IMG/VR virus record: IMGVR_UViG_3300045988_001084
Span: 1-6,133 of that record
DNA length: 6,133 nucleotides
Reading direction: 5' to 3' (one strand)
DNA from: a virus
Shown here piece after piece: positions 1 to 6,133 of the stretch. The notes below the pieces were generated by a model. It was not told the origin of the DNA and did not search any database. It saw nothing but the letters and a program-made list of their open reading frames with translations. Position numbers and translations under genes: made by a program. Every line of letters begins with the position of its first letter. The stretch's first letter is position 1.

Positions 1-55
1 AAGTATTTAGGTGTTGATAGTCTTAGTGACGCTAATAATCCTTTGGTTTATCAGA
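1..55 (+). repeat. Terminal redundancy (left copy), the signature of a circular genome linearised by assembly.
   Basis: AAGTATTTAGGTGTTGATAGTCTTAGTGACGCTAATAATCCTTTGGTTTATCAGA at 1-55 is identical to 6079-6133. It falls in the middle of the VP1 reading frame, so it is not a biological terminal repeat. Confidence 0.95.
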
Positions 56-1221
56 GTTCTCAAATTGTTAACGCTCTTCCGTTCCTTGCTTATCAGAAAA
101 TCTATTATGATTTCTTTAGTAATTCTCAATGGGAGAGACATTTGGCTTATGCTTATAATGTAGATTATTGGTCTGGAACTGGTCAACTCTCATTAGTTAC
201 GGATATGGTTAAGCTTCGCTATTCGAATTATCCTAAAGACTATTTTATGGGTATGCTTCCGTCTAGTCAGTATGGTTCAGTAGCTGTTTTGCCTTCTTAT
301 TATGATTCTTCTCATTCTTCTAATAATGTTTTGGCTTATTCCTCTGGCGCAACTCCTTCCTTTGGCTTGATGGAAAATGGTTCTTCTACTACTAATGTGA
401 CTGTTTCTAATTCTTCTGATGCTCTTCGTTATGCTACTCTTAATACTGACCTTTCCGCCCTCTCAATCCGTGCCACAGAATACCTCCAGCGTTGGAAAGA
501 GGTAGTACAATTCTCTAGTAAGGATTACTCTGACCAGATGGCTGCTCAGTTTGGTATCAAAGCTCCCGAATACATGGGTAATCATGCTCACTATATTGGA
601 GGCTGGTCTAGTGTTATTAATATCAATGAAGTAGTTAATACCAATCTTGACTCTGATTCCTCTCAGGCTTCTATTGCTGGTAAGGGTGTATCTAGTAACT
701 CTGGTCATACTCTTACTTATGATTGTGGCGCTGAACATCAGGTGATTATGTGTGTTTACCATGCTGTACCTATGTTGGATTGGAATTTGACTGGTCAAAA
801 TCCTCAATTGACTGTAACTGCTATATCTGACTTCCCTCAACCAGCGTTTGACCAACTTGGTATGCAGGCCGTTCCTGCTCTGAATCTCCAGAATAATCCA
901 GGTCGTGTCGTTTCAGGTTCTTTAGGTTATAATCTTCGCTATTGGCAGTGGAAATCTAATATTGATACCGTTCACGCTGGATTTCGTGCTGGTGCTGCTT
1001 ATCAATCTTGGTCTGCTCCTCTTGATGGCTGGCAAGTTTTGACTTCTGCTGGTGTTTGGTCTTATCAGTCCATGAAGGTTCGTCCTCAACAGTTGAATTC
1101 TATTTTTGTACCTCAGGTTGATGCTGCTAATTGCTCTGTTGCATTTGACCAATTGTTGTGTAATGTTAACTTCCAAGTATATGCTGTACAGAATTTGGAT
1201 AGAAATGGTTTACCCTTTTAA
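1..1221 (+). CDS. VP1: Major capsid protein VP1 (phiX174 F-like jelly-roll), C-terminal 406 codons plus stop. It continues in frame from 5557..6078 across the circular junction, giving about 580 aa in total.
   Basis: Frame 1 is open from base 1 (KYLGVDSLSDANNPLVYQ...) to TAA at 1219-1221. The tracked start at 43 is only a TTG inside the ORF. Position 6079 equals position 1 and 6078 is divisible by 3, so the 5557 ORF joins in frame. Size, the Ser/Thr-rich variable loops and the GGWSSVININEV-type segment resemble microvirus capsid proteins. Codons strongly favour T at the third position, as in the other genes. Confidence 0.92.
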   Translation, partial: KYLGVDSLSDANNPLVYQSSQIVNALPFLAYQKIYYDFFSNSQWERHLAYAYNVDYWSGTGQLSLVTDMVKLRYSNYPKDYFMGMLPSSQYGSVAVLPSYYDSSHSSNNVLAYSSGATPSFGLMENGSSTTNVTVSNSSDALRYATLNTDLSALSIRATEYLQRWKEVVQFSSKDYSDQMAAQFGIKAPEYMGNHAHYIGGWSSVININEVVNTNLDSDSSQASIAGKGVSSNSGHTLTYDCGAEHQVIMCVYHAVPMLDWNLTGQNPQLTVTAISDFPQPAFDQLGMQAVPALNLQNNPGRVVSGSLGYNLRYWQWKSNIDTVHAGFRAGAAYQSWSAPLDGWQVLTSAGVWSYQSMKVRPQQLNSIFVPQVDAANCSVAFDQLLCNVNFQVYAVQNLDRNGLPF

Positions 1222-1233
1222 TTGTGTGTTGTT

Positions 1234-1686
1234 ATGAGAAATTTTGCTTATATAAATTCCGATTTTATTAAGAACGAAGTTGTTCCCGAATTGGTTGAAG
1301 ATAATCCGTGTTATCAACAATCTGTGTATGATTCTGTTATGTATGATGAGACTCCTGATGGCGATTTGATTCAAGCTGATATGACTCAGATTCTTCTGAA
1401 TCAAGAAAAATACCGTCGTTTGCTTGGTGATATGAACGTGCAGAGCATTCTTGCTCAGATGTATCCTACTCAGTCTACTATTATGGATGGTATGACTGAT
1501 GATGAGCGGTTTAATTGTATTATTTCTCGGCATTGCCAGACAATGTCTGAGCGTCAAGCCGTATTACAACAGTTGGCTAATGAGAAGTCTGAATTATCGG
1601 CTTATGCCAAGTCTATGTTGGAAGAACAATTGGCAGAGAAAGAAGCAGCGCCGTCTACGGATTCCGCCCCTGCTCCTGAGTCATAA
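1234..1686 (+). CDS. Hypothetical acidic 150-aa protein, possibly an internal scaffolding or assembly protein (function not established).
   Basis: The first ATG is at 1234 (the tracked start at 1222 is TTG), 13 nt after the VP1 stop. The stop TAA at 1684-1686 overlaps the VP2 ATG (TAATG). Third-position T bias matches the other genes. The protein is rich in D/E and has a predicted helical, coiled-coil-like C-terminus (ERQAVLQQLANEKSELSAYAKSMLEEQLAEKE) and a Pro/Ser tail. Size and charge recall microvirus scaffolding proteins, but I see no diagnostic motif. Confidence 0.6.
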   Translation: MRNFAYINSDFIKNEVVPELVEDNPCYQQSVYDSVMYDETPDGDLIQADMTQILLNQEKYRRLLGDMNVQSILAQMYPTQSTIMDGMTDDERFNCIISRHCQTMSERQAVLQQLANEKSELSAYAKSMLEEQLAEKEAAPSTDSAPAPES

Positions 1687-2774
1687 TGGGTCTTTTTGAT
1701 GCTATAGCTTCCTCGGCCGCAAACCTTACCGACAATGTTGTTGGTATGGTTAATCAGAATCATCAGAATAAGGTTAATCTCCGTATGATGCGCGAACAGA
1801 ACGCATTTAACGCAGAACAGGCTCAAATCCAGCGTGATTGGCAGCAACAGATGTGGGGTATGAATAATGCCTATAACTCTCCTAACGCTATGATTTCTCG
1901 TGGTTTGAATCCGTTTGTTCAAGGTTCTGCTGCTATGGCTGGTTCTAGGTCTCCTGCTTCAGGCGGAGCTGTTGCTACTGCCGCTCCTGTTCCTAGCATG
2001 CAGGCTTATAAACCTAATTTTTCTGGCGTGTTCCAGTCTCTTGCTTCCCTTGCTCAAGCTAAGGCTTCTGAGGCTTCTTCTGGTGAATCAGTCTCTCGTG
2101 CACGTCAGACTGATACGGTAACTCCTCTTTTGTCTGATTATTATAGAGGTCTTACTAACTGGAAGAATCTATCTATTGGCTCTTCTGGTTATTGGAATCA
2201 GGAAACAGGCCGTATTTCTGCCGCTCTAGACCAGTCTACTGAGGCCCAAAATCTAAAAAATGCCCAGTTTGCTGAACGTATATCTTCCGCTCAAGAAGCA
2301 CAGATTTTGCTTAATTCTGATGCTCAACGTGTTATGAATAAATACATGGACCAGAATCAACAGGCTGATTTGTTTATTAAGGCTCAAACCTTAGCCAATC
2401 TCCAGACTCAAGGTGCTCTTACTGAGAGGCAAATCCAGACTGAAATACAACGTGCTATTCTTGCTTCTGCCGAGGCTTCTGGCAAGAAAATTGATAATCG
2501 TTTGGCTTCTGAAACGGCTGATTCTCTGATTAAGGCTGCTAACGCTTCCAATGAGTTGCAATATCGTGATAGTACGTATGATTATAAGAATGTTAAGCTT
2601 CGTAAACATACGGAGTATAAAACTTCTATGGCGAATCAGAAAGCTGCTGAATATGGTGCAGACTTGGCTCGCAAACAAGGCCGTACTCATTATTGGGAAT
2701 CCGTTTCTCGTGGTCTTGGTTCTATTGCTTCTGGTTCTGGTAATTTTGTCGGTGCATATAATGGTCGTAAATAA
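1686..2774 (+). CDS. VP2: Minor capsid / DNA pilot protein VP2 (phiX174 H-like).
   Basis: The N-terminus MGLFDAIASSAANL...NLRMMREQNAFNAEQAQIQRDWQQQMWGMNNAYNSPNAMISRGLNPF is the typical conserved VP2 head (N-x-REQNAFN ... R-x-W ... YNSP ... GLNP). It is followed by an Ala/Ser/Gly-rich linker and a long Q/A/E-rich helical region, as in pilot proteins. ATG is at 1686 and TAA at 2772-2774. Confidence 0.88.
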   Translation: MGLFDAIASSAANLTDNVVGMVNQNHQNKVNLRMMREQNAFNAEQAQIQRDWQQQMWGMNNAYNSPNAMISRGLNPFVQGSAAMAGSRSPASGGAVATAAPVPSMQAYKPNFSGVFQSLASLAQAKASEASSGESVSRARQTDTVTPLLSDYYRGLTNWKNLSIGSSGYWNQETGRISAALDQSTEAQNLKNAQFAERISSAQEAQILLNSDAQRVMNKYMDQNQQADLFIKAQTLANLQTQGALTERQIQTEIQRAILASAEASGKKIDNRLASETADSLIKAANASNELQYRDSTYDYKNVKLRKHTEYKTSMANQKAAEYGADLARKQGRTHYWESVSRGLGSIASGSGNFVGAYNGRK

Positions 2775-2842
2775 ATATTACTATTCGTTGTCTTATATTT
2801 TTTTTACCTATTATTTATTTTTGTTGTGAATATTTGATTTTG

Positions 2843-2854
2843 CGAAATATTTCG
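2843..2854. repeat. Perfect 12-nt palindrome CGAAATATTTCG in the AT-rich part of the large intergenic region.
   Basis: Read directly from the sequence: c2843 g a a a t a t t t c g2854 is its own reverse complement. Function is unknown; it could be a dimeric protein-binding site or a small hairpin. Confidence 0.5.
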
Positions 2855-2879
2855 ACTCTCGGTAGTAAAATAATATTAC

Positions 2880-2888
2880 GTATACATT
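2880..2888 (+). repeat. Left copy of the 9-nt direct repeat GTATACATT that brackets the GC-rich block.
   Basis: GTATACATT at 2880-2888 is identical to 3063-3071, a 183-nt offset. In both copies GAAGCCC follows, 11 nt downstream (2900-2906) and 16 nt downstream (3088-3094). The left copy directly abuts TAATATTAC (2871-2879). Confidence 0.7.
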
Positions 2889-2962
2889 CTTTAGGACTAG
2901 AAGCCCATCGCGGCGTTTGAGCGATATACACCCGCCGCCCGCGTAGGGCCTGGTCGAAAAAT

Positions 2963-3008
2963 GGAGCGGAGCGACTTCCTTATAGGAGCGCTCCGCTCCG
3001 GTATTTTA
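2963..3008 (+). terminator. Candidate intrinsic terminator for the VP1-VP2 transcript.
   Basis: An 11-bp perfect GC-rich stem (2963-2973/2989-2999) can extend by four more pairs (2975-2978 with 2985-2988) to leave a 6-nt loop. It is followed by GGTATTTTA (3000-3008). It lies ~190 nt after the VP2 stop. The T-tract is short and interrupted, so the call is tentative. Confidence 0.4.
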
Positions 3009-3062
3009 GCACGGAGTGCGCAAAGGCAGGTTCTATCTGACCTGCCGTGCCTATACCCCCCT

Positions 3063-3071
3063 GTATACATT
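3063..3071 (+). repeat. Right copy of the 9-nt direct repeat GTATACATT.
   Basis: Exact match to 2880-2888. The 174 nt between the two copies carry the highest GC content in the window. Confidence 0.7.
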
Positions 3072-3202
3072 TACTTGTTAATTAAGCGAAGCCCCTAGTT
3101 GTGTGCGAAGCAAATCCGAGTTATCCTCTCGGATTCTCCTGTTTCTTGTCTATAAACGCACAACTCACACTCTACGGTAGAATCTAAAAAAAAGAGATTT
3201 CT

Positions 3203-3233
3203 TTTGGAGTTATAGAAATAGTTTGTATATTTG
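3203..3233 (+). promoter_or_regulatory. Candidate Bacteroidetes-type promoter (-33 TTTG / -7 TAnnTTTG) upstream of the 3278-5538 gene block.
   Basis: TTTG is at 3203-3206 and TATATTTG at 3226-3233, with a 19-nt spacer, about 45 nt upstream of the ATG at 3278. This matches the Bacteroides sigma-AB consensus as I recall it. The genes lack clear Shine-Dalgarno sequences, which is also typical of Bacteroidetes. A second -7-like TATTTTTG at 2816-2823 has no obvious -33 partner. Confidence 0.4.
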
Positions 3234-3277
3234 CTCCCAGTTAGAAGTTACAACCATTATTAACATTTTAAATTCTT

Positions 3278-3478
3278 ATGATTATGCAGAAATTTATTAT
3301 CTCAGTTAAAGACAAAAACACTGGTCGCGATGTTATTCCGCCTTATATTGTCAATTCTCTCGATGGCCTTGGAAATTATTCTGAGCGAATTTCTCCGCTG
3401 GGTCTTATTGTTATTGTGGATTCGATTAAAGAAGAAAATGATTTTATTAACCTCAACACTCAAGGCGATGAAAAGTAA
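3278..3478 (+). CDS. Hypothetical small acidic protein (66 aa).
   Basis: ATG is at 3278 and TAA at 3476-3478. About half of its codons end in T (34 of 66 by my count), matching the bias of the recognised genes. The overlapping 3330 frame lacks this bias. I recognise no motif. There is no TM segment or signal peptide, and D/E residues exceed K/R. Confidence 0.6.
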   Translation: MIMQKFIISVKDKNTGRDVIPPYIVNSLDGLGNYSERISPLGLIVIVDSIKEENDFINLNTQGDEK

Positions 3479-3551
3479 TAATATTTGGAAAATTGTTATT
3501 GGAGCCGTTTCTGCCGCTCTTGGTTATATTCTTAACGCTATTGGCTTATGA
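3468..3551 (+). CDS. 27-aa single-pass membrane peptide (MKSNNIWKIVIGAVSAALGYILNAIGL). Candidate holin-like or membrane-permeabilising partner of the downstream peptidase.
   Basis: The ATG at 3468 overlaps the last codons of the 66-aa ORF. The stop TGA at 3549-3551 overlaps the peptidase ATG at 3548 (ATGA). 17 of 27 codons end in T, which fits real coding. A short N-terminus with two lysines precedes a ~20-residue hydrophobic helix with small-residue spacing (GAVSAALG). The upstream part of the tracked 73-aa ORF (3330-3467) looks like a frame-shadow artefact. Confidence 0.45.
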   Translation: MKSNNIWKIVIGAVSAALGYILNAIGL

Positions 3552-3856
3552 ATAATGATCTTATGGATTTTTTTGAGCACCTGCTTTGTTTTAACCTGCA
3601 TTTTTCGGTAACAAGCGCTAAACGTTCTATTGCTGAAAATAAAGCTGCTGGAGGTGTTCCTAATTCGCAACATTTGGTTGGCGAAGCTGTTGATATTAAA
3701 CCGTATGGTTCTACTACTTATGGTCGGTTGCTTGAGCATATCCATAACTATTCAGACAACATTCATGTGTTTGACCAACTGATATTGTATCCTACGTTCA
3801 TTCATGTTTCATTTGGTGAGCGTAATCGTCGTCAAGTAATTGATAAAAGAAACTAA
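3548..3856 (+). CDS. Zinc D-Ala-D-Ala carboxypeptidase-like peptidase, M15 / LAS superfamily (Peptidase_M15_3-like). Probable endolysin.
   Basis: The segment VTSAKRSIAENKAAGGVPNSQHLVGEAVDI ... FIHVSF matches the M15 pattern (S-x-x-R-S ... N ... GG ... S-x-H-x6-D ... h-H-h). The putative Zn ligands are H42 (3671-3673), D49 (3692-3694) and H86 (3803-3805). At 102 aa it is a minimal domain with no signal peptide or TM segment. Confidence 0.8.
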   Translation: MNNDLMDFFEHLLCFNLHFSVTSAKRSIAENKAAGGVPNSQHLVGEAVDIKPYGSTTYGRLLEHIHNYSDNIHVFDQLILYPTFIHVSFGERNRRQVIDKRN

Positions 3857-3858
3857 TT

Positions 3859-5538
3859 ATGAATTATTCTCCCGATTTGCTTAAGGCTGTTGACCATTGT
3901 CAGCATCGTTCCTTTATCACAAATAGATATAATGGTGCCCGCATTGCTGTAGATTGCGGTCAATGTGATTATTGTATCCATAAGAAAGCTCAAAAAGCGT
4001 CCATGCGCGTGAAGACCGCTGGAAGTGCTTTTAAGTATTCTTATTTCGTTACGCTTACTTATGATAATGAACACGTGCCTCTTATGGCTTGTAAGGTTCT
4101 GCATAGTGACTATGATGACGCTATAGGCATTTCGGGAGATGTTCATTTTGGTTATGAATATCATAAATATATCCCTGTTTCTGAATATCAATGTGATGAT
4201 GACTCCATATTGCGTCATATATTCTTCGAGCAGGTACAAGGCACAGTGCCGTTTGACCGTGAGCTTAAGGAGTATGCTCCTGTTAAGGATAATTGGTTCC
4301 TTAGTATGGCTGCTATTCGTAGCTTTATCTATAAGACGCAATCGGTTGACAAAACGGATTATCCCGCTTCTGCACAATATGGTCGTGATAACCTTATACC
4401 CTTTTTGAACTACGCTGATGTTCAGAATTATATTAAAAGATTACGTAAATATTTATATAAACAGTTAGGTTCTTATGAAACGCTACATTTCTACGCTGTC
4501 GGTGAGTACGGCCCTGTGCATTTCCGTCCGCATTATCATATCTTATTATTCACGAACTCGGAAGAAGTCTCAAAGGTATTACGATACTGTCACGATAAGA
4601 GTTGGAAATTCGGTCGTTCAGATTTCCAGCTTGCCCGAGGTGGAGCTTCTTCATACGTTTCGAGTTACGTTAATAGCCTTAGTTCTGCTCCCTTATTATA
4701 TCGCTCATGCCGCGCGTTTAAACCCCGCTCGAGAGCGTCTCTCGGATTCTTTGAGAAAGGTTGCGATTTCGTGGAAGGTGAAGAGCCTTATGCGCAGATT
4801 GAACAAAAAATCGATTCTGTCGTTAATGGAAGAATCCATAACTTCAACGGCCTTAGTATTCGGTCAACTCCGCCCATGTCGTATATCCGTACCTTACTGC
4901 CCCGATTCTCGTCTGCTCGCAATGACGATAGTATTGCGATTGCTCGAATTCTTCGAGCTGTACACTCAACGCCAAAGAGAATTGCAAAATTCGGATTTAT
5001 CGACTACAAACAGGATTCGGTTTTGAGCCTTGTCCGTACTTATTATCAATATCTCAAAGTTCAAAATATTCTTACAGATGATGACAAAATTATATTACAC
5101 GCTTCTCGGTGTCTTACTAGGTTCTGTAACAGTTCTAGCGATGTCGATATTGAATCTTATATTAATAAGCTATATCGGTTGTTCTTATATGTCTATAAGT
5201 TCTTCCGTAACTGGCATTTGCCTTCCTTCGGTTCTGATATTAGTGCTTACTCCGGTCGTATTATGTTTATCATTAAAACAGGCATAGAATATGAAAAGAA
5301 AGCGAATTATGAAAATTTGCGAGGTATATATGGCCTTCGTTCCCAATACCCTGAACTCTCGGATTGTATGTTCGTTCTACCTGCGAACGGCCAAGAATCA
5401 GATATCTTACAGTCTATTTCACGTGAAACAATTCAGCTCCTTGAGCAACTTCGGTTCCGTAGTGCAACATTCTGTCGCGATATGATTAAGCACAAAAAAC
5501 TTAATGATGCTAATAATATTTTCAACCGCATGGTTTAA
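3859..5538 (+). CDS. VP4: Rolling-circle replication initiator protein VP4 (phiX174 A-like HUH endonuclease).
   Basis: All three RCR motifs are present. Motif 1 is FVTLTYD (4045-4065). Motif 2 (HUH) is HFRPHYHILLF, with HYH at 4531-4539. Motif 3 is the paired catalytic tyrosines YVSSYVNS (Y266 at 4654-4656, Y270 at 4666-4668; compare phiX174 A YVAKYVNK). There is an N-terminal Cys/His cluster HCQH...CGQCDYCIH. I found no P-loop in the 559 aa. Confidence 0.93.
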   Translation: MNYSPDLLKAVDHCQHRSFITNRYNGARIAVDCGQCDYCIHKKAQKASMRVKTAGSAFKYSYFVTLTYDNEHVPLMACKVLHSDYDDAIGISGDVHFGYEYHKYIPVSEYQCDDDSILRHIFFEQVQGTVPFDRELKEYAPVKDNWFLSMAAIRSFIYKTQSVDKTDYPASAQYGRDNLIPFLNYADVQNYIKRLRKYLYKQLGSYETLHFYAVGEYGPVHFRPHYHILLFTNSEEVSKVLRYCHDKSWKFGRSDFQLARGGASSYVSSYVNSLSSAPLLYRSCRAFKPRSRASLGFFEKGCDFVEGEEPYAQIEQKIDSVVNGRIHNFNGLSIRSTPPMSYIRTLLPRFSSARNDDSIAIARILRAVHSTPKRIAKFGFIDYKQDSVLSLVRTYYQYLKVQNILTDDDKIILHASRCLTRFCNSSSDVDIESYINKLYRLFLYVYKFFRNWHLPSFGSDISAYSGRIMFIIKTGIEYEKKANYENLRGIYGLRSQYPELSDCMFVLPANGQESDILQSISRETIQLLEQLRFRSATFCRDMIKHKKLNDANNIFNRMV

Positions 5539-5556
5539 TTTTTAATTTTATTGATT

Positions 5557-6133
5557 ATGAGTGATTTTAACCCTTTAGACCGAGCGAAAATTTCTACCCA
5601 TCGCTCTTCCTTCGACTTGTCTAGTAAAAAATTGTTTACAGCAAAAGTTGGAGAAATTTTACCTTGTTATTGGCAGATTGCTATCCCTGGTACTAAGTAT
5701 CGCATTTCCTCCGACTGGTTTACCCGTACCGTTCCGGTTAATACGGCTGCTTATACCCGTATTAAGGAGTATTATGATTTCTACGCTGTACCGCTGCGCC
5801 TGATTTCTCGTGTACTTCCGCAGGCATTTGCCCAGATGACGGATTATATGACTAGCGCTTCTAGTAGTACTACTAATGCGCCTGTACTTACTTCTGTTCC
5901 TAATGTTTCCCAGAGCACGATTAGCTTGTTTCTTCAAACGGCTAACGCTGGTGACCAGACTAATACTCGTGACGACGCAGGGCTTCCTATTGTTTATGGT
6001 TCTTGTAAGTTGCTTGATTTGCTTGGTTACGGTTCTTTGATTGCATCTACTAATACTGCTAAGGCTGCTATTACGAAAAAGTATTTAGGTGTTGATAGTC
6101 TTAGTGACGCTAATAATCCTTTGGTTTATCAGA
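5557..6133 (+). CDS. VP1: Major capsid protein VP1, N-terminal part. The unique part is 5557..6078; bases 6079..6133 duplicate 1..55.
   Basis: ATG at 5557-5559 lies 18 nt after the VP4 stop, and frame 1 has no stop to the window end. My translation is MSDFNPLDRAKISTHRSSFDLSSKKLFTAKVGEILPCYWQIAIPGTKYRISSDWFTRTVPVNTAAYTRIKEYYDFYAVPLRLI... The FDLS-x4-FT-x3-G-x-L-P ... PG ... Y-x-F-VP-R-L pattern is the conserved N-terminal signature of Microviridae major capsid proteins. The ORF track omits this ORF because it has no stop inside the window. Confidence 0.92.
   Translation, partial: MSDFNPLDRAKISTHRSSFDLSSKKLFTAKVGEILPCYWQIAIPGTKYRISSDWFTRTVPVNTAAYTRIKEYYDFYAVPLRLISRVLPQAFAQMTDYMTSASSSTTNAPVLTSVPNVSQSTISLFLQTANAGDQTNTRDDAGLPIVYGSCKLLDLLGYGSLIASTNTAKAAITKKYLGVDSLSDANNPLVYQ
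6079..6133 (+). repeat. Terminal redundancy (right copy).
   Basis: Exact 55-nt copy of 1-55; the offset of 6078 nt gives the genome length. Confidence 0.95.

Follow-up and report, generated by a model that had tools for sequence, protein, structure and literature searches.

Why does a microvirus genome whose remaining gaps span only 18-69 nt keep one large stretch free of genes? The question is raised by positions 2775-3277 of IMGVR_UViG_3300045988_001084, an IMG/VR virus record analysed here over positions 1 to 6,133 (the window, 6,133 nucleotides), which is a complete circular microvirus genome with all its credible genes on the plus strand. A preliminary description, made from the sequence alone, had drawn attention to this gap, which it estimated at about 8% of the genome, and to a GC-rich, multi-hairpin block within it, for which it proposed a structured single-strand origin, a non-coding RNA, a stack of terminators or a captured foreign segment. 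We report that the block (2889-3175) is a real, strongly supported and conserved structured element common to a whole group of Bacteroides-type microviruses. It is built of four modules, M1 to M4, and most likely acts in genome replication.

A conserved structured element in the only large gap

The gap is the sole large non-coding stretch of the genome and occupies 8.3% of its 6078 nt, in agreement with the initial estimate. Its composition differs from that first given, since the GC content of about 60% announced for 2900-3165 is found only in 2900-3060 (60.2%); the full interval reaches 52.6%, and the 3' part (3061-3170) is at 41.8%, for a genome value of 40.1%. Two open reading frames (ORFs) of at least 40 amino acids lie within the gap, at 2897-3070 on the minus strand and 2961-3098 on the plus strand, and neither is conserved. 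Any given frame is open across 2900-3165 in at most 5 of 112 relatives, and block lengths among relatives differ by non-multiples of 3. A hidden gene in the block was thus ruled out for lack of a conserved open frame. GenBank records carry coding sequences (CDSs) labelled "hypothetical protein" that overlap the structured element in Dulem virus 242 (XCD03858), Dulem virus 257 (XCD06793) and phiHBP1 (CNECMEOK_00004), a distant relative isolated on Bacteroides fragilis (PMC13064476); in our set of loci these CDSs lie at L005 558-884, L357 3581-3784 and L304 2326-2736. As a conserved frame is lacking, they are probably spurious.

Folding of 2880-3170 is far more stable than expected by chance, with z-scores of -6.3 using DNA parameters and -6.2 using RNA parameters, and none of 200 shuffled sequences folds as well. 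The minus strand of the same interval has a z-score of -4.0.

Matches to the block were found in 34 GenBank microviruses, with identities of 73-88% (80-88% for 33 of them), for whole-genome identities of 70-84%; the nearest records, uncultured Microviridae, stem from dogs, lemurs and humans. In IMG/VR, a 23-nt motif from the 5' half of the block was found in 107 microvirus contigs and a 16-nt motif from the 3' half in at least 119 contigs; the combined 3' pattern likewise occurs in at least 119 metagenome contigs, mostly of about 6 kb or shorter fragments, many of them labelled human gut. The block occupies the same genome position in hundreds of independent microvirus contigs. Among 190 related genomes, its aligned identity (0.85-0.95) equals or exceeds that of the best coding segments, against 0.7-0.9 elsewhere, and the flanking stretch 2761-2850 aligns in only about 9% of these genomes.

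The helices are conserved and covary among relatives, compensatory changes being seen across a set of more than 100 diverse relatives for every helix except one proposed outer pairing discussed below. For M4, 97.5% of the cells are paired in an alignment of 116 diverse sequences; two-sided changes affect 11 pairs and 203 cells, and slid controls reach 48 cells at most. For the 5' modules (107 sequences), 98.2% of the cells are paired, with 10 pairs and 143 cells changed on both sides, against at most 6 in slid controls. The observed covariation score was reached by none of 500 shuffles in either test.

Three further pairings suggested by folding programs were set aside. The ACTAG/CTGGT extension of the minimum free energy (MFE) fold is contradicted by C-A and A-C mismatches read from the alignments rather than formally counted in the correct register. 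The MFE closing stem 2880-2886/3062-3068, likewise assessed without a formal covariation count, has its 5' arm in a poorly conserved stretch and is probably specific to the window genome. The long-range pairing 2963-2972/3086-3095 proposed by RNAalifold involves invariant positions alone and therefore carries no evidence.

The M4 core and its reach across microviruses

M4 (3073-3175, plus strand) is the widely conserved core of the element. It consists of an AT-rich 5' flank (TGTTAATTAA), a first mini-hairpin, a three-way junction, an unpaired strand and a CACAC tail. Mini-hairpin 1 (GCGAAGC, 3086-3092) is near-invariant in the close clade, with GCGGAGC and ACGAAGT as variants, and reads ACGAAGT, GTGAAGC, TTGAAAA or ACGTAGT in distant clades. 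The junction is closed by helix P1 (3097-3104/3158-3165), which encloses mini-hairpin 2 and hairpin P3 and is 99-100% paired: AGTTGTG/CACAACT in the window is replaced by AGTTCAA/TTGAACT or AGTTGCG/CGCAACT in relatives, and by ACTTTCG/CGAAAGT in phiHBP1. Mini-hairpin 2 (GCGAAGC, 3105-3111) has an outer pair that is GC in 52 sequences, CG in 47 and AU in 13, and its loops are GAA, GGA, GTA, GAAA or GTAA. Hairpin P3 (3113-3135) has 8 bp and a TTATCCT loop in the window; seven of its eight pairs have changed on both sides in the close clade, and all eight in distant clades.

P3 is followed by an unpaired, pyrimidine-rich junction strand of 22 nt (3136-3157) that holds a conserved CTTGTC (3145-3150) and in which CTTGTCYATAAACG is near-invariant over 226 sequences. 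In distant clades the motif is CTTGTY, or else CTGGTC or CTCGTC. Conservation of CTTG in an unpaired state holds for the close clade and for 9 of the 14 distant cores; CTGG or CTCG stands in its place in the remaining five. The window also has a CTG at 3139, 4 nt after P3, which is not conserved, the conserved motif being CTTG at 3145-3148.

A covariance model of M4, termed R1, was used to search distant microviruses whose replication protein Rep is only 25-30% identical to that of the window. These genomes were taken by accession, as a Rep-alignment scan returned close relatives only and a query with the Rep of mar63 returned nothing. R1 found one match in each of 14 out of 15 genomes, and every match lies on the gene strand, with the pilot gene on one side and Rep on the other. 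The E-values were 1.6e-10 for Dulem 257, 2e-9 for Dulem 266, 7e-6 for bajarodmic 1102, 2.5e-5 for mar63 and 1e-6 to 7e-4 for phiHBP1 and five relatives, with three weaker matches at 0.03-0.2. In these distant clades, 17 of 20 M4 pairs have changed on both sides and 96.4% of the cells are paired, in an alignment fitted to the R1 model, which favours the structure. The sequence of P3 is wholly different in the distant matches yet remains paired. What stays constant is the two C-GNA(A)-G mini-hairpins, CTTGTY or a one-base variant of it, and ACA after P1. Downstream of the core, usually within about 20-110 nt, nearly every distant genome examined has a TAnnTTTG -7 box.

The promoter that follows M4 in the window is of the Bacteroidetes type (TTTG-19 nt-TATATTTG, 3203-3233, plus strand). 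It starts 28 nt downstream of M4, is the only full match to this promoter type on either strand of the genome, and is predicted from its sequence to drive the genes for ORF66, a peptidase and Rep.

Some distant relatives have larger gaps after the pilot gene, of up to about 1 kb (L362 3252-4302, L361 3569-4364, L306 3755-4576 and L304 2277-2686). These gaps share no sequence similarity with window modules M1-M3 and, L306 excepted, are mostly packed with plus-strand C-GNA-G or C-GNNA-G motifs; L361 has 9 or 10 of them in its gap, depending on how the gap edges are counted, against 3 in the remainder of its genome.

Accessory modules upstream of the core

Modules M1-M4 occur in differing combinations among relatives, and several genomes keep M4 alone, without the GC-rich modules. 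The GC-rich part stressed by the preliminary description is hence the accessory part: the block is folded and conserved as it proposed, but it is modular rather than a single element, and its widely conserved portion is the AT-richer 3073-3175. M4 is most likely the essential part, the GC-rich 5' part being a clade-specific accessory plus a terminator.

M1 (2893-2955, plus strand; mean identity to the window of 0.91 over 190 genomes) comprises a conserved leader, hairpin Pb and an H-type pseudoknot. Pb (2907-2925) pairs ATCGC with GCGAT (2907-2911/2921-2925) around a 9-nt loop; its helix is 99.2% paired, pair 2910-2922 being GC in 85 sequences, AU in 14 and CG in 6. The pseudoknot (2933-2949) is made of stems S1 (2933-2935/2941-2943) and S2 (2937-2940/2946-2949) with loops of 1, 0 and 2 nt. 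Its two stems covary independently and are 100% and 99.8% paired, as illustrated by pair 2933-2943 in S1 (CG 96, GC 6, UA 5) and pairs 2938-2948 (CG 101, GC 4, AU 1) and 2940-2946 (CG 103, UA 4) in S2. An outer pairing between GCCC (2903) and GGGC (2949), suggested in the preliminary description, is rejected by covariation: it is mismatched in exactly those sequences where S1 and S2 covary, and GGGC (2946-2949) instead pairs with GCCC (2937-2940) in S2.

M2 (2963-3008, plus strand; z = -6.4) is the 11-bp perfect GC-rich stem noticed at the outset (2963-2973/2989-2999), followed by GGTATTTTA. Among the helices, it alone is rich in G-U pairs (41 and 33 cells) and in A-C mismatches (27 cells). 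A terminator scan flagged two sites, a shorter stem at 2985-2999 in the 3' arm of M2, followed by a GGTATTTTAG tail, and 3113-3135. Genome L161 retains the M2 hairpin alone, followed by TATTTTTTG, and in L165, L170, L171 and L177 the GC-rich modules are replaced by an ordinary hairpin and T-run upstream of the core. M2 looks like an RNA-level intrinsic terminator for the VP1-VP2 transcript and a separate element. The promoter first proposed at 2816-2823, for a non-coding transcript ending at hairpin 2963-3008, did not hold up: the TATTTTTG found there is a lone box within an AT-rich variable spacer (2775-2888, 23% GC) that follows the VP2 stop, no TTTG -33 partner was found for it, and the surrounding stretch aligns in 9% of relatives. 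No sigma-70-like site was found on the plus strand of 2600-3400; the single match (3309-3281) is on the minus strand, outside the folded block.

M3 (3009-3050, plus strand) consists of hairpins H3 and H4, both of which covary. H3 (GCAC-GGA-GTGC, 3009-3019) is of the C-GNA-G mini-hairpin type, and its pair 3011-3017 is AU in 73 sequences and GC in 34, with no intermediates. H4 (3020-3050, 98.9% paired) has an inner helix (3025-3030/3041-3046), in which pair 3029-3042 is GC in 54 sequences and AU in 53 and pair 3030-3041 GC in 99 and AU in 5, closed by an outer helix (3020-3022/3048-3050). H4 and P3, the latter inside P1, correspond to the two hairpins with outer helices seen initially, and covariation supports both.

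Several variants were observed around these modules. Between M3 and M4, a small optional hairpin (3051-3068, TATAC(A)-CCCC-TGTATA) is present in most close relatives and deleted in Dulem 254-type genomes. L161, L165, L170 and L177 (without M1-M3) share a conserved TTTTTCCGAAAGTA between terminator and core, about 20-40 nt upstream of the core. A different cassette lies upstream of the core, or partly replaces it, in L171 (2828-3332, minus strand), L122 and L014 (3664-3767); it brings together a terminator, a small ORF and a segment rich in pyrimidines (…CTGCATAGTCGAACCCAAAAAAGGAAGC…CTCAC…), whose alignment to M4 is weak and which may be a degenerate second copy of it. In L014 (3769-3940), a cluster of C-to-T changes across M1 (GCCC to GTTC, GGGCC to GGACT) breaks stem S2, which could reflect a hypermutated or defective copy, or a sequencing error.

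Strand-specific mini-hairpins

The 287-nt block contains four N-C-GNA-G-N' motifs for 0.24 expected (P < 1/5000). In the non-coding gaps of the window and eight distant genomes, 44 GNA/GNNA motifs are on the plus strand and 7 on the minus strand, shuffled gaps being expected to hold 0.4-1.0 each; the remainder of the nine genomes has 48 on the plus strand and 94 on the minus strand. Among the loops, C-G-closed triloops of sequence GAA, GGA or GTA predominate. Sequences of the GCGNAGC/GCGNNAGC type form an extraordinarily stable DNA mini-hairpin, of which the RNA versions are far less stable and to which single-strand binding protein (SSB) binds poorly (PMC13037366).

Several observations bear on whether the element folds as DNA or RNA. 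Outside M2, the helices swap almost solely between Watson-Crick pairs, with very few G-T intermediates. DNA parameters recover the comparative M4 fold in both the window and phiHBP1; with RNA parameters, mini-hairpin 2 is lost in the window and P1 in phiHBP1. M3 and M4 are placed between a terminator-like hairpin and the sole full promoter. Searches of Rfam 15 with both strands of the window, at E-values up to 10, gave noise only (e.g. mir-383, RAGATH-30), the best match being mir-383 with 21.5 bits for a gathering score of 70; at gathering score no match was obtained in 12 genomes, and ARAGORN found no tRNA or tmRNA. Overall, the evidence leans towards a folded element that would act as DNA rather than RNA.

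Comparison with known replication origins

By analogy, the element resembles the complementary-strand origins of G4 and phiX174 and the single-strand origins of plasmids, yet it is a member of none of these groups. As in the origin of G4 (also St-1, alpha3 and phiK), the block is intergenic and on the viral strand, has several adjacent hairpins, mini-hairpins of the GCGNNAGC/GCGNAGC type, and an unpaired stretch 3' of a hairpin where priming could start; in the block, fold and motifs are specific to the plus strand. In G4, the mini-hairpin belongs to the hairpin copied into the primer: GCGAAAGC is found at 3977, inside the annotated primer template (3970-3997), and the start is at CTG 3996-3998. 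Mini-hairpins also occur in St-1, alpha3 and the ssiA site of RSF1010 (PMC13037366). M4 nevertheless differs from the G4 origin in lacking sequence or structure homology to it (R1 E = 4.6 on G4), in being a three-way junction with a long-range helix where G4 has three independent hairpins, in its conserved unpaired motif (CTTG, not CTG) and in the host of the phage, which belongs to the Bacteroidota.

The primosome assembly site of phiX174 (n'/PriA) is likewise a structured viral-strand intergenic site, its recognition hairpin lying ahead of gene G, and a structure of this kind has been proposed to be necessary for any microvirus (PMC9865509). That site is described as a simple hairpin region (PMC9865509), unlike the junction with accessory modules seen here. 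The identical heptamer GCGAAGC is present at 2358 in the F-G intergenic region of phiX174, and CCGAAGG occurs at 4333, immediately 3' of the viral-strand origin; together with the position in G4, this indicates that mini-hairpins flank both kinds of origin in the classical phages. The R1 match at 2345-2435 of phiX174 is insignificant (7.2 bits, E = 3.7), the best E-value on this genome being 2.2.

Plasmid single-strand origins (sso; ssoA, ssoU, ssoT, ssoW) and the f1/M13 region are orientation-specific, highly folded non-coding single-stranded DNA of about 150-300 nt that adjoin the double-strand origin and the rep gene and act as modular cassettes. In the f1 region, about 500 nt accommodate a structured signal together with both the minus and the plus origin. 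The block shares these traits in being folded, non-coding, modular and structured. Unlike ssoA, it has no CS-6 box (TAGCGW) on either strand of 2775-3277, and no plasmid shares its sequence. Unlike the f1/M13 minus origin, it has no promoter-mimicking hairpin, the TAnnTTTG boxes of the gap being found only at 2816 and 3226, outside the folded block. Nothing in the block suggests the use of RNA polymerase, on which sso and f1 origins rely.

In reekeekee- and roodoodoo-microviruses, predicted intergenic hairpins next to Rep, with compensatory substitutions, were proposed as unproven negative-strand initiation sites (PMC9865509); the idea of such sites in microviruses is therefore not new. Compared by description only, these one or two simple hairpins from other clades differ from the four modules, junction, pseudoknot and mini-hairpin arrays of the block. 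CCGAAGG (RSF1010 ssiA) and GCGGAGC (early promoters of phage N4) are part of single-stranded DNA signals read by primase or RNA polymerase (PMC13037366). The same heptamers are present here as mini-hairpin 2 variants and at 2966, but the enzymes that read those signals are encoded by the plasmid or phage itself (RepB', N4 vRNAP), and the proteins of the window microvirus showed no primase or polymerase domain. In the papers searched, we found no description of an M4-type element, or of any replication origin, for Bacteroidota-type microviruses, and the paper describing phiHBP1 makes no mention of an origin, intergenic region or hairpin in the phage genome.

A putative complementary-strand origin

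We tentatively favour a reading in which 2889-3175 is a cis-acting replication-origin region that works as folded viral-strand (plus) DNA, with M4 as the complementary-strand priming site, and we hold this to be nearly, though not quite, probable. It is favoured because mini-hairpins are found at or near known priming sites and because the junction has a shape of single-stranded type: a P1 helix closing about 60 nt, including a 22-nt unpaired strand, would suit a single-stranded molecule and not a cruciform extruded from a duplex. According to this model, the circular plus strand would enter a Bacteroidota cell and be coated by the host SSB, while the region would stay folded, with the M4 junction (P1, P3 and two C-GNA-G mini-hairpins) and the accessory mini-hairpin-rich M1 and M3. 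The folded region would be the entry site for host priming, either by direct primase action, as in G4, or by a PriA-type primosome, as in phiX174. Priming would begin 3' of P3, on the unpaired, pyrimidine-rich strand (3136-3157), and complementary-strand synthesis would then convert the genome to the double-stranded replicative form. M2 would be the intrinsic terminator of a single genome-length transcription unit starting at promoter 3203-3233, so that M3 and M4 would sit in the spacer between terminator and promoter.

Several points weigh against this reading, and every functional step of the model is one that we infer. The CCGAAGG immediately 3' of the phiX174 viral-strand origin means that mini-hairpins do not separate the two types of origin, and the universal conservation of M4, its adjacency to the Rep promoter and its unpaired CTTG would also fit a viral-strand (Rep) origin. 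Known complementary-strand origins tend to be exchangeable. The covariance search with R1 revealed no homology of M4 to G4 or phiX174 (best E = 2.2), and the CS-6 box of ssoA was not found in 2775-3277. Since viral-strand DNA and mRNA share the same sense, neither covariation nor strand bias can tell DNA from RNA; some of the mini-hairpins have GNRA-like tetraloops, motifs that work well in RNA too, and a covarying H-type pseudoknot such as that of M1 is more familiar from RNA. Finally, the loci were collected with block-derived motifs, which inflates close-clade conservation at those positions. Thus, of the structured, orientation-specific single-strand origin first proposed, the conserved, covarying structure and its strand-specific mini-hairpins stand, origin activity is inferred, and a Rep nick site is still a rival. 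The outcomes named at the outset as refuting (helices neither conserved nor covarying, or a clear host-genome match) did not materialize, nor did the Rfam match that would have reclassified the block.

That rival, which we consider doubtful but weightier than the others, holds that M4 is, or also contains, the viral-strand (plus) origin nicked by the HUH Rep, with the upstream mini-hairpin-rich modules as complementary-strand origin, a layout that resembles the f1/M13 intergenic region. The nick would fall either within the junction strand, at CTTG|TC (3145-3150), or at TG|TTAATTAAG (3076-3085), on the 5' border of M4. M4 is the sole non-coding element conserved clade-wide, it almost always lies upstream of a -7-type box preceding the Rep-containing genes, and Rep carries the same types of motif (HUH, YxxxY) as the A protein of phiX174. 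CTTG is moreover the 5' half of the nick site of phiX174 (CAACTTG|A, origin annotated at 4306) and of the pC194 family; its unpaired state and conservation, the CCGAAGG mini-hairpin directly after the phiX174 plus origin, and the fact that upstream cassette swaps stop just 5' of TTAATTAAGCG all point the same way. The similarity of the junction strand to the 30-nt phiX174 origin is however at background level (13/30, for an average of 18 in shuffled genomes), only the tetranucleotide CTTG being shared, and the ACTTG 5' flank is not conserved within the family. A genome-wide search with that origin (CAACTTGATATTAATAACACTATAGACCAC) gave a best match of 21/30 inside VP2, borderline with respect to shuffles. 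A junction closed at long range would be unlikely to extrude from the supercoiled duplex that is the substrate of Rep, known HUH origins are simple hairpins or unstructured, and the junction strand shows no recombination boundary, P1 being complementary everywhere. A composite region with both origins, by analogy with the f1/M13 intergenic region, is quite possible. Action of the block, or of parts of it, as RNA appears rather unlikely: M1 and M2 would then be a structured 3' untranslated region and terminator protecting a genome-length mRNA, and M3 and M4 a non-coding RNA or a read-through/processing element. The structures are indeed in mRNA sense, M2 tolerates G-U pairs and precedes a U-tract, the pseudoknot is compact and covaries, some loops are GNRA-like, and the whole-block RNA fold has a z-score as strong as that of DNA. 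Against this stand the negative Rfam searches, the position of M4 downstream of a terminator-like hairpin and upstream of the only full promoter, the non-conservation of candidate promoter 2816 and its missing -33 box, the near absence of G-U intermediates outside M2, an RNA MFE fold that misses the comparative fold in phiHBP1, and the dominance of C-G-closed GAA, GGA and GTA triloops, which are hallmarks of DNA mini-hairpins.

A bifunctional M4 seems quite unlikely to us; its junction would present the Rep nick site (unpaired CTTG) and its SSB-resistant GNA mini-hairpins would recruit Bacteroidota priming by a route unlike those of PriA, DnaG on G4 or RNA polymerase, M1 being a selected DNA pseudoknot. 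Should this be true, no natural functional single-stranded DNA pseudoknot would have been described in a phage origin before that of M1. We regard it as very improbable that the block only stacks terminators or insulates the promoter from the end of the late genes, and plays no part in replication. The two sites flagged by the terminator scan and the ordinary hairpin and T-run that take the place of the GC-rich modules in L165, L170, L171 and L177 would fit such a role, but M4 persists downstream of these good terminators and is kept across clades whose Rep is 25-30% identical; CTCCTGTTTC after P3 makes a poor U-tract, and a terminator requires neither a pseudoknot nor a helix closing at long range, nor does it require GNA triloops or unpaired motifs that are conserved. 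Scarcely credible, lastly, is an origin of the block as captured host or mobile DNA, as an assembly chimera or as the dif-like XerCD site of a temperate microvirus, even though the GC content of the 5' half is unlike that of the rest of the genome and Bacteroidales microviruses that form proviruses have dif-like sites located upstream of rep (PMC3091885). Both block motifs are absent from 185,579 bacterial and archaeal species genomes (one genome per species), a plasmid blastn search with the block gave no match beyond a chance one (E = 0.3), and hundreds of independent microvirus contigs carry the block at the same position, so that the capture or chimera initially envisaged is rejected; the dif core (21 nt, up to 3 mismatches) had no match in the gap, and the XerD-arm pattern is absent inside 2775-3277.

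Genome organization

Window positions 1-55 and 6079-6133 form an exact 55-nt direct repeat, which corresponds to an assembler overlap on a circular contig, hence the genome size of 6078 nt. The repeat makes the capsid gene appear split (an ORF from 5557 to wrap position 17 and an ORF at 43-1221); removing one 55-nt copy restores an intact gene. The genes, all on the plus strand, are those for the major capsid protein (from 5557, wrapping to 1221), a 154-codon ORF (1222-1686), the pilot protein VP2 (1686-2774), the 66-codon ORF66 (3278-3478), an M15 peptidase (3548-3856) and the rolling-circle protein Rep (3859-5538), whose HUH motif is HFH at residues 225-227 and whose YxxxY pair is Y266 and Y270.

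Within rep, the segment 4468-5241 has a third-codon-position identity of 0.89-0.96 in several 30-nt stretches, for a genome mean of 0.62 (190 relatives), and alternative-frame ORFs are found at 4475-5026 (183 aa) and 5030-5287. This pattern could reflect an overprinted gene or an embedded cis-element, frame-specific conservation not being decisive. The rep gene also contains CTTATATTAATAA (5156-5168), which differs from the phiX174 origin core CTTGATATTAATAA only in lacking one G and hardly varies in the close clade; as the equivalent site is unrelated in distant clades, this resemblance is probably due to chance plus coding constraint.

Implications for gut microviruses

In the human and animal gut, microviruses of the window type rank with the most abundant DNA phages. 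For these phages, the present work provides an alignable origin candidate of about 100 nt together with its covariance model. M4 can be used as a marker for orienting and annotating microvirus contigs, and the element gives reason to drop several probably spurious "hypothetical protein" calls that overlap it. As M4 is present in phiHBP1, the first cultured member, the origin question is directly testable in B. fragilis. More broadly, C-GNA-G DNA mini-hairpins in strand-specific arrays may mark single-stranded DNA origin regions in general, and not just in the phages of E. coli where attention was first drawn to them.

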